Source: a virus (lineage: Duplodnaviria; Heunggongvirae; Uroviricota; Caudoviricetes). From it: a DNA stretch of 11,810 nucleotides. How positions within the stretch are numbered: the stretch's first letter is position 1; each line of letters opens with the position of its first letter. This document shows positions 7,700 through 10,171 of this stretch, piece after piece. The notes under the pieces are model-generated. The model saw only the letters and a program-made list of their open reading frames with translations, did no database searches and was not told where the DNA came from. The translations under genes were made by a program, and so were the position numbers. The DNA is taken from the IMG/VR virus record IMGVR_UViG_2778261375_000004; one strand, 5' to 3'.

Positions 7700-10171
7700 A
7701 TGAGTAAAGTCTTTATTTGCGCCGCTATTCCTGACGAACTGGCAACAAGGGAAGAAGGCGCTGTGGCTGTAGCCACAGCCATTGAAGCTGGCGACGAACG
7801 CCGTGCTCGAGCAAAATTTCACTGGCAATTCCTGGAACATTATCCGGCTGCTCAGGACTGCGCTTATAAATTTATTGTCTGCGAGGATAAACCTGGCATA
7901 CCCCGCCCAGCCCTCGATTCATGGGATGCTGAATATATGCAGGAAAACCGCTGGGATGAGGATTCTGCTTCTTTTGTTCCGGTTGAGACTGAATCCGATC
8001 CGATGAACGTCACTTTTGACAAGCTGGCCCCTGAAGTACAGAACGCTGTCATGGTTAAGTTCGACACATGTGAAAACATCACCGTTGATATGATTATTAG
8101 CGCGCAGGAATTGTTGCAGGAAGACATGGCAACATTCGACGGACATATCGTTGAAGCGTTGATGAAAATGCCAGAAGTTAACGCCATGTATCCGGAGCTT
8201 AAGTTGCACGCCATTGGGTGGGTTAAGCATAAATGTATTCCTAGTGCTAAATGGCCCGAAATTCAGGCAGAGATGCGCATCTGGAAAAAACGTCGCGAAG
8301 GTGAACGCAAGGAAACCGGAAAATACACGTCTGTTGTTGATCTCGCCCGCGCCAGAACCAATCAACAGTACACTGAAAATTCAACAGGAAAAATCTGCCC
8401 GGTCATTGCTGCCATTCATCGCGAATACAAGCAGACATGGAAAACACTGGATGACGAACTGGCCTACGCTCTCTGGCCTGGTGATGTGGGTGCCGGAAAC
8501 ATTGACGGCAGCATCCATCGCTGGGCAAAAAAAGAAGTTATCGACAACGACCGCGAAGACTGGAAGCGTATCTCGGCATCAATGCGCAAACAGCCTGATG
8601 CCCTTCGCTACGACCGCCAAACTATTTTTGGCCTTGTCCGTGAGCGTCCGATCGACATTCACAAAGATCCCGTAGCACTGAACAAATATATCTGCGAATA
8701 CCTGACGACAAAGGGCGCGTTTGAGAATGAAGAAACAGACCTGGGCACTGTTGATGTTCTCCAGTCATCAGAAACACAAACTGATGCAGTGGAAACTGAG
8801 GTATCTGATATCCCAAAAAATGAAACCGCGCCGGAAGCTGAACCATCTGTAGAGCGTGAGGGGCCGTTCTATTTCCTCTTCGCAGATAAGGACGGAGAAA
8901 AATACGGTCGCGCAAACAAACTTTCTGGTCTGGATAAGGCACTGGCTGCTGGCGCCACTGAAATCACAAAAGAAGAATATTTTGCCCGAAAAAATGGCAC
9001 ATACACGGGCTTACCGCAAAATGTAGATACCGCTGAAGATTCAGAACAACCAGAGCCGATAAAAGTTACCGCTGACGAAGTAAACAAAATTATGCAGGCA
9101 GCCAATATCAGCCAGCCTGACGCCGATAAGTTGCTTGCTGCATCACGTGGTGAATTTGTTGAAGGGATTAGTGACCCGAATGATCCGAAATGGGTTAAGG
9201 GGATCCAGACCCGCGATTCTGTGAACCAGAACCAGCATGAATCGGAACGGAACTACCAAAAAGCGGAACAAAACAGTCCAAATGCGTTACAAAACGAGCC
9301 AGAAACGAAACAGCCTGAACCAGTGGCGCAACAGGAAGTGGAAAAAGCCTGCACCGCTTGCGGTCAGACCGGCGGCGGCAACTGCCCTGATTGTGGCGCG
9401 GTGATGGGCGACGCAACATACCAAGAAACATTCGATGAAGAGTATCAGGTTGAAGTTCAGGAAGATGATCCGGAGGAAATGGAAGGCGCTGAACATCCAC
9501 ACAAGGAGAACACTGGCGGCAATCAGCATCACAATAGCGATAATGAAACTGGCGAGACGGCAGATCACCCAATTAAGGTGAACGGTCATCACGAAATCAC
9601 ATCCACCAGCAGGACGTGTGACCATCTAATGATCGACCTTGAAACCATGGGAAAAAATCCTGATGCCCCGATCATCTCAATAGGTGCAATATTTTTCGAT
9701 CCGCAAACCGGAGATATGGGACCGGAATTTAGTAAGACTATCGATCTGGAAACTGCTGGCGGAGTCATTGATCGGGACACCATTAAATGGTGGCTTAAGC
9801 AATCACGCGAAGCGCAATCTGCCATTATGACCGATGAAATCCCGTTAGATGATGCACTGTTACAATTGCGGGAATTTATCGACGAAAACTCCGGTGAATT
9901 TTTTGTTCATGTCTGGGGAAATGGAGCCAACTTCGACAACACGATTTTGCGCCGTTCATACGAACGGCAGGGGATCCCCTGCCCGTGGCGTTACTACAAC
10001 GATCGCGATGTACGCACAATCGTTGAGCTGGGGAAAGCCATAGACTTCGATGCCAGAACGGCTATTCCATTCGAAGGTGAGCGCCATAATGCACTTGATG
10101 ACGCCCGTTACCAGGCAAAATACGTTTCAGTTATCTGGCAAAAACTGATCCCGAGTCAGGCTGATTCTTAA
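7700..10171 (+). CDS. RecE/ExoVIII-like prophage protein with C4 zinc ribbon and C-terminal DEDDh (DnaQ-like) 3'-5' exonuclease domain
   Basis: 823 aa, ATG 7700 with GAGGT 9 nt upstream. DEDDh motifs read from the translation: Exo I M-I-D-L-E (D646, E648; nt 9629-9643), Exo II [11 protein letters not shown] (D746), Exo III H-N-A-L-D-D (H796, D801). Cys4 motif CTAC...CPDC (~nt 9350-9397). Segment [30 protein letters not shown] resembles RecE as recalled. Corresponds to an intact version of the IS-disrupted ydfE of Qin. Confidence 0.8.
   Translation: [823 protein letters not shown]

Follow-up and report, generated by a model that had tools for sequence, protein, structure and literature searches.

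An intact ydfE-type gene of Escherichia coli prophages joins a RecE-type scaffold to a predicted DEDDh exonuclease domain

RecE and RecT are the workhorse of recombineering, and the locus studied here raises the question of what a RecE-like protein does when it ends in a different enzyme and is followed by no annealase gene. The window, an 11,810-nucleotide stretch of the Caudoviricetes virus record IMGVR_UViG_2778261375_000004, contains a complete open reading frame (ORF) of 823 amino acids (aa) at 7700-10171. It begins with ATG, with a GAGG about 10 nucleotides (nt) 5' of the start. In E. coli ECCRA-119, RefSeq places an 'exonuclease', WP_000048286.1, at identical coordinates, within the gene order DicA-like repressor, ydfA, ydfB, ydfC, dicF, dicB, ydfD, exonuclease gene, xis, int, rspB. 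The equivalent site of K-12 reads dicB-ydfD-ydfE'-IS2E-intQ'-rspB, and ydfE there is marked as a pseudogene cut by IS2. Because the locus matches the K-12 ydfE site, we identify the ORF as an intact ydfE. In the leftward early operon of a Qin-like lambdoid prophage remnant, no other gene stands between it and xis-int. What is new here is the modularity of the scaffold on which the enzyme is carried, including a predicted and previously unrecognised fusion to a Rad52-fold annealase.

The enzyme at the C-terminus was assigned with Pfam. PF16473 (Rv2179c-like) matched aa 642-813 with 225 bits (E 6.9e-67; gathering cut-off 27 bits) and was covered from position 2 to 177 of 177. The catalytic set of a DEDDh exonuclease is present, with D646 and E648 in motif I, D746 in motif II, and H796 and D801 in motif III (H-x4-D). 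T4 DexA (exonuclease A; PDB 8KEL/8KEN), whose activity as a 3'-5' DNA exonuclease has been characterised, reaches 79.9 bits with that Pfam model, and a sequence search of the PDB gave it as the sole relative (E 6e-6). The five catalytic residues all align, in order, with DexA D7, E9, D119, H186 and D191, which were taken from PMC12153337, where the legend prints the second as E12. The two proteins differ in that they share 27% identity and that DexA is a 227-aa stand-alone enzyme with extra loops, whereas the domain here is tethered to a 640-aa scaffold. Rv2179c of M. tuberculosis is the founding member of PF16473, the family whose profile the domain matches over its whole length; Rv2179c is set apart by its description as a cellular single-domain exoribonuclease (Pfam family description). 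We infer the activity of the domain, its 3'-5' polarity, a DNA substrate and the biological role of the protein from family and motif.

Relatives of the domain occur both fused and free. Of six diverged representatives of the fused form, five have DEDDh motifs I-III; for the sixth, P0249, the motif I pattern search was uninformative. The stand-alone Rv2179c-like exonucleases compared (those of phage 1720a-02, 190 aa, and PhiR46_1, RcKeef gp7 and VLCpiM12a gp17) all score on PF16473 and lack the scaffold. Those of lambdoid phages are 54-60% identical, start exactly at the domain start (..LMIDLETMG) and lie among the ea genes. The stand-alone homologues of virulent phages adjoin a DNA polymerase, a Gp2.5-like annealase or a Cas4-like nuclease.

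In front of this domain, the protein is related to RecE of the Rac prophage (exonuclease VIII). The homology spans aa 246-627 overall, against RecE residues of about 271-600. BLASTP against K-12 RecE aligned aa 278-627 with RecE 293-592 (E 7e-62) at 40% identity, which rises to about 90% past aa 465, including the CxxC-x7-CxxC motif and the acidic tract. At the nucleotide level, recE is 78% identical over ORF nt 1425-1867, which is window 9124-9566 (aa 475-622). The NCBIfam model for exodeoxyribonuclease VIII, NF007259, matched aa 246-623 with 278 bits, covering only profile positions 271-600 of 877, and this score lies far below the curated cut-off of 1269 bits for full-length RecE. Nothing aligned beyond RecE residue 592 in BLASTP. 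The PD-(D/E)xK nuclease domain of RecE (RecE 600-866, DUF3799) was not found in the window protein with an iterated hidden Markov model (HMM) built in three rounds from RecE C-terminal domains, which recovers K-12 RecE and 13 relatives.

The two proteins therefore share some parts and differ in others. Both genes occupy the same early-left operon position upstream of xis-int, and the central helical domain, a conserved block, the CxxC-x7-CxxC motif and the acidic linker are homologous. In contrast, RecE has the head PF06630, to which the head of the window protein (aa 1-220, YdfE_N) is not homologous. The 5'-3' PD-(D/E)xK nuclease of RecE is replaced here by the DEDDh domain, and recT, ralR and rcbA are not found downstream.

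The absence of an annealase gene was examined in the window and beyond it. One of the genomes used was that of HannyBb (45 kb), an isolated plaque-forming phage with a 98.9% identical gene at the corresponding position. The window gave no tblastn match to RecT, Red-beta, P22 Erf, a Rad52-like domain, lambda Exo, the RecE nuclease domain or Gam. The same panel was also negative for the entire HannyBb genome and seven other loci, with Sak4, Gp2.5 and UvsX types not searched; the L004 excerpt, which was outside the panel, is covered by the whole HannyBb genome. Pfam scans of the window ORFs and the HannyBb early ORFs did not find an annealase either. In all nine DEDDh-type loci examined, at several attachment sites, the exonuclease gene runs directly into xis-int. 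These loci are the window (match L001), HannyBb, phage 813R8, L011 (Rac-like), three ompW-adjacent prophages and L012. For the annealase types searched and the loci examined, having no annealase is a constant trait of the DEDDh variant. As for a two-component module of exonuclease plus single-strand annealing protein, no such protein of the types searched was found.

Much of the original prediction, which was made from the letters of the window, agrees with these results. It had described a RecE-like middle segment, a DEDDh C-terminus with the residues given above, no recT or bet before xis-int and no classical pair of Exo and annealase. The first two were borne out by BLASTP, NCBIfam and Pfam. 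The third is matched by the 72-base gap to xis and the negative Pfam and tblastn searches, and the fourth by the failure to find an annealase in the window, HannyBb and the seven other loci. The domain search that it had proposed for residues ~640-823 returned PF16473, a DEDDh-like family. It had also put a zinc ribbon into an acidic linker. The CxxC-x7-CxxC motif and the acidic tract are present, with 14 D/E and zero K/R in aa 561-600, but the motif is no family hallmark. Only six of 47 long relatives have it, it is also present in K-12 RecE, and it lies outside the region modelled with AlphaFold2 (AF2). The motif is an optional insert, and its cysteines may bind zinc.

To what else is this scaffold attached? 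When 1.8 billion representative proteins were searched with aa 1-640, 247 relatives were returned. A local census showed two alternative heads (YdfE_N or the RecE head PF06630) in front of the common helical domain and linker, behind which four different endings occur. The first is the RecE PD-(D/E)xK nuclease (13 representatives), with recT overlapping the end of the gene where checked. The second is the DEDDh domain (six representatives). The third is a domain of about 290 aa without a Pfam match (14 representatives). The fourth is a conserved module of about 45 aa ('..LTIAALHGLCANPA..') without an enzyme domain, found in P0126 (L025 4001-6109) and P0133 in the slot before xis-int.

The third ending could not be identified by sequence alone from Pfam or PDB. 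Its AF2 model has a predicted local distance difference test score (pLDDT) of 82.7, and a Foldseek search with this model gave human Rad52(1-212) as the sole significant PDB match (E 7e-7, probability 1.00). A comparison by hhalign with an approximate RAD52 query sequence was suggestive only (E 0.022). Because the fold search matched Rad52(1-212), this ending is, on the predicted structure, a Rad52-fold annealase fused to the scaffold. Members of this type are P0129 (L013 5001-7337), P0137, P0188, P0237 and a protein of Pectobacterium phage ZF40 (H69). The fusions (phrog_2489; P0129; the 'putative exonuclease' of ZF40) share the PF27430 plus PF27432 scaffold and the slot before xis-int with the window protein. 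They differ from it in that the C-terminus has an annealase fold and no nuclease, and in their neighbours; in L013, the genes flanking the fusion are a weak Gam match and Sipho_Gp157, and xis-int lies downstream. PHROGs (2489, 7838) and GenBank label these fusions 'exonuclease', which we flag as an annotation error.

A junction between two of the variants is preserved in L011, a Rac-like prophage of GCA_039763085. Its gene (5001-7418) follows K-12 RecE to about aa 607 at 93.7% nucleotide identity, and from about aa 462 on it follows the window sequence at 93.4% identity, including the DEDDh domain. The two homologies overlap in the zinc/acidic linker segment; recT, ralR and rcbA are missing, and xis-int comes next. 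Because of this overlap, the zinc/acidic linker is the probable site of cassette exchange by homologous recombination. Taken together, the comparisons of heads, linkers and endings indicate that the RecE-type scaffold is a reusable platform for interchangeable, predicted end-processing cassettes. Since three DNA-end enzymes appear to be swapped at one linker, the binding target of the scaffold should be common to all the variants. The sister variants have an annealase either downstream (RecT) or fused (Rad52-like), which ties the scaffold to recombination more firmly than the original prediction had assumed.

The gene is no oddity of this window but the commonest E. coli form and the intact version of K-12 ydfE. 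Counting matches that cover at least 80% of the query, the DNA of the full gene was found in 3537 of 5426 complete E. coli genomes and that of the DEDDh domain (555 bases) in 4048, with up to seven copies each. The RecE nuclease domain's DNA was found in 1730 of them. Many E. coli genomes have copies that are 100% identical, and many database entries are fragments. PHROG 2082 matches the protein end to end. RefSeq names the protein 'exonuclease', or '3'-5' exoribonuclease domain-containing protein' for some copies, and newer Pfam releases name its front half YdfE_N and YdfE_C. The assignment to the YdfE family (PF27430 YdfE_N plus PF27432 YdfE_C) comes from precomputed Pfam matches on proteins 94-98% identical to the window protein and from the shared K-12 ydfE locus. 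The gene is ordinary in E. coli and already annotated, and the DEDDh form is no new gene. A functional study of a ydfE-type protein was not found in the literature. The cautious reading offered at the outset, DNA-end processing or an anti-phage or anti-host nuclease, is supported as what the evidence still allows.

Within this range, we favour, at about even confidence, a scaffold-tethered two-metal 3'-5' exonuclease that trims DNA 3' ends in early phage DNA metabolism. Three things favour this reading: the scaffold's association with a recombination nuclease and an annealase in other variants, the genomic position of the gene, and the precedent of DexA. A cassette swap by recombination within the linker shared among prophages would have removed the RecE nuclease together with recT. 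Upon derepression or infection, the protein would be made with the other early-left genes, and the scaffold would bring the enzyme to its site of action. There, the two-metal DEDDh site would remove nucleotides from free DNA 3' ends, so that replication or recombination intermediates would have their 3' tails or flaps trimmed. Pairing would be left to host RecA or to the annealase of a co-resident prophage. The protein would thus replace the RecE nuclease and RecT pair rather than complement it.

Several points weigh against this proposal. Digestion in the 3'-5' direction destroys the tails needed for annealing or strand invasion, so it is not evident how the protein would promote recombination. 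No structural relative of known function was found for the scaffold, and because of this, delivery by the scaffold is deduced solely from domain shuffling. The namesake of PF16473, Rv2179c, is a ribonuclease (RNase). The gene is intact in a 9-kb remnant and present in 75% of genomes, which fits a host-beneficial, defence-type role too. Finally, EcD, a stand-alone E. coli homologue of DexA, protects against T4 (PMC12153337).

A broader version is more tentative. The long N-terminal part of RecE might be a general lambdoid delivery platform that can bear a 5'-3' nuclease accompanied by RecT, a Rad52-type annealase, a 3'-5' DEDDh exonuclease or no enzyme, with the DEDDh form serving annealase-free DNA-end processing. 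If this were true, the protein could be a trimmer of 3' tails or flaps that feeds phage DNA to host RecA-dependent repair, or a blocker of host end processing, and decayed prophages could have kept it because it benefits the host. The function of the N-terminal region of RecE (the first ~600 residues) is listed as unknown (PMC11611040), and the reuse of cassettes offers a concrete handle on it. The DEDDh variant is present in three quarters of complete E. coli genomes, and finding a benefit to the phage, the host or both would fill a gap in prophage biology.

Of the other explanations, the one that survives best is an anti-phage nuclease of the 'HREX' type, which would spare host DNA and degrade the modified, 5-hydroxymethylcytosine (5hmC)-type DNA of a superinfecting phage. 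We consider this unlikely. The gene has been kept intact in a decayed remnant, the domain is as widespread as the 4048 genomes show, and the upstream gene dicB affects phage sensitivity. The precedent is EcD, an E. coli-encoded, DexA-like member of the family that cuts T4 5hmC DNA and protects cells (PMC12153337, 2025). EcD differs in being single-domain and was compared here by the description in that paper and its cloning primer only; the primer gives a MIDTET start, homologous to M644 in position (MIDLET here). However, the domain does not fit the HREX signature of that study, in which Trp152 and Asp169 are kept and Asp90 is lost (PMC12153337). The 5hmC-recognising W152 and D169 of DexA correspond to Y766 and A780 here, with D782 two residues on and the alignment of the D169 loop uncertain. 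The tetramer-forming D90, which is Ala in EcD, is retained as D718. EcD (HAK9828821.1) was not among the best 120 homologues of the DEDDh domain, and patterns derived from its primer (23 nt and 20 nt) gave no match or a chance match in viral contigs. In addition, the gene is placed in the repressor-controlled early-left operon and is therefore expected to be silent in a lysogen, and HannyBb, a functional phage, has it in its recombination slot. With PADLOC, no defence system was found, only a generic CRISPR-associated DEDDh match (E 1.5e-5).

Another possible explanation takes the Pfam and RefSeq names literally: the protein would be an exoribonuclease that trims or degrades the 3' ends of RNA early in phage development, whether operon transcripts, DicF or host RNAs. 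The family is indeed named after the M. tuberculosis exoribonuclease Rv2179c, some RefSeq copies bear the corresponding name, and the operon encodes a processed small RNA (sRNA), DicF. Yet the DNA exonuclease DexA scores on the same Pfam model with the 79.9 bits given above, the other enzyme cassettes on the scaffold (RecE nuclease, Rad52-fold annealase) are all DNA enzymes, and the stand-alone phage homologues sit in clusters for DNA replication and recombination. Because of the kinship with DexA and the homologues in DNA clusters, the 'exoribonuclease' label appears to be only a family name. DNA is more likely the substrate than RNA, and we think an RNase role improbable.

We give equally little credence to a nuclease directed at host DNA, which would turn host fragments into nucleotides, or else dampen RecA, SOS or other host responses by removing 3' tails of host DNA. 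Two roles are established for DexA, and scavenging of host DNA is among them (PMC12153337). The neighbouring early genes dicB, ydfD and dicF all act against the host cell, but no endonuclease partner that would create the ends was found nearby. Temperate lambdoid phages are not known to degrade the host chromosome. This explanation also leaves the sharing of the scaffold with recombination enzymes unexplained.

The state of the gene bears on whether it has a present function at all. All five DEDDh-type genes compared are intact. For the linker and exonuclease parts, closer copies give a ratio of nonsynonymous to synonymous substitution rates (dN/dS) of about 0.12-0.15, from few substitutions, and the linker gives 0.29 against the more diverged L011. 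For the exonuclease domain, comparison with diverged copies gives about 0.14-0.15, likewise from few substitutions. These ratios indicate that the DEDDh-type gene is under purifying selection. It is very improbable that the gene is an inactive relic, left as a chimera when prophages recombined. In favour of a relic, the window contains a cryptic remnant of about 9 kb, IS2 interrupts the pseudogene of K-12 and many database entries are fragmentary. Against it, the ORFs are intact, the motifs persist in five of six diverged representatives (P0249 being uninformative for motif I), dN/dS is low in the C-terminal half, and the gene occurs in a plaque-forming phage and, over at least 80% of its length, in 3537 genomes.

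The coordinates of the domains, together with those of the neighbouring genes, are collected in Table 1. The N-terminal head consists of an alpha/beta domain (aa 1-100) and then a helical domain (aa 105-220). Disordered acidic stretches (aa 346-383 and 441-460) border the small beta/alpha domain in the AF2 model. The conserved block could be a docking motif. By eye, motifs related to it (..EY[VI]EGIS..W[VI]..) were seen in P0129, which is of the Rad52 type, and in P0267, in which no enzyme domain was identified. We considered whether a separate DEDDh protein is made from an internal start at M644 and rejected this, as the nearest AGGA is about 17 nt upstream and there is no convincing ribosome-binding site. 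Some databases list 180-aa proteins starting with MIDLET, and these look like truncated or stand-alone copies.

Table 1. Positions in the window of the ydfE-type gene, the parts of its protein and the surrounding features
Feature	Position	Strand	Basis
Complete ORF, 823 aa + stop; intact YdfE-type 'exonuclease' WP_000048286.1	7700-10171	+	ORF call, RefSeq
N-terminal head, aa 1-220	7700-8359	+	Pfam YdfE_N in near-identical homologues
Helical domain, aa 245-345 (Pfam YdfE_C); start of RecE homology	8432-8734	+	
Small beta/alpha domain, aa 388-432	8861-8995	+	AF2 model
Conserved block, aa 465-500 (GEFVEGIS...KW), almost invariant between YdfE and RecE	9092-9199	+	
CxxC-x7-CxxC (C551, C554, C562, C565), putative zinc knuckle/ribbon	9350-9394	+	
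Acidic low-complexity linker, aa 566-639	9395-9616	+	Composition
Predicted DEDDh 3'-5' exonuclease domain PF16473, family of T4 DexA and M. tuberculosis Rv2179c	9617-10168	+	
DicF sRNA, upstream part of the same early (dicB) operon	7004-7055	+	Rfam RF00039, 76.7 bits
dicB	7230-7418	+	RefSeq, ORF scan
ydfD, immediately 5' of the exonuclease gene	7415-7606	+	RefSeq, ORF scan
Excisionase gene xis, begins 72 bases past the exonuclease stop codon	10244-10495	+	ORFs, RefSeq, Pfam
Tyrosine integrase gene int; no gene between the exonuclease gene and xis-int	10515/10530-11810	+	ORFs, RefSeq, Pfam
Host BCCT transporter gene, left of the prophage	741-2744	-	
DUF977 gene, rightward early genes of the remnant	3079-3501	-	Pfam
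Gene for a 357-aa protein, without Pfam match	3542-4618	-	Pfam scan
YdaT_toxin-family gene	4684-5109	-	Pfam
YdaS-like gene, weak match	5093-5374	-	Pfam
139-aa repressor-like gene	5475-5894		
Near-perfect hairpin, 41 nt, 18-bp stem (GTTACCCATGGGTATTTA...TAAATACCTATGGGTAAC), directly 3' of the repressor-like gene	5935-5975	+	

The prophage remnant takes up about 9 kb of the window (~3079-11810) and is cryptic, with all structural genes lost. Its left boundary lies between 2744 and 3079. DicF, dicB and ydfD make up the cell-division-inhibition and lysis part of the operon to which the exonuclease gene belongs. The rightward early genes on the minus strand (3079-5374) are arranged as are ydaS/ydaT in Rac. 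The hairpin behind the repressor-like gene could be a terminator or an operator-like palindrome. A weak hairpin with a 5-bp stem at 7644-7657, in the gap between ydfD and the exonuclease gene, was not significant, and a scan for promoters and terminators gave counts not above those of shuffled sequence. In HannyBb, the nin-like region contains a homologue of the epoxyqueuosine reductase QueH (L008 33011-33697; Pfam E 2e-65), which hints at a queuosine- or 7-deazaguanine-related function.

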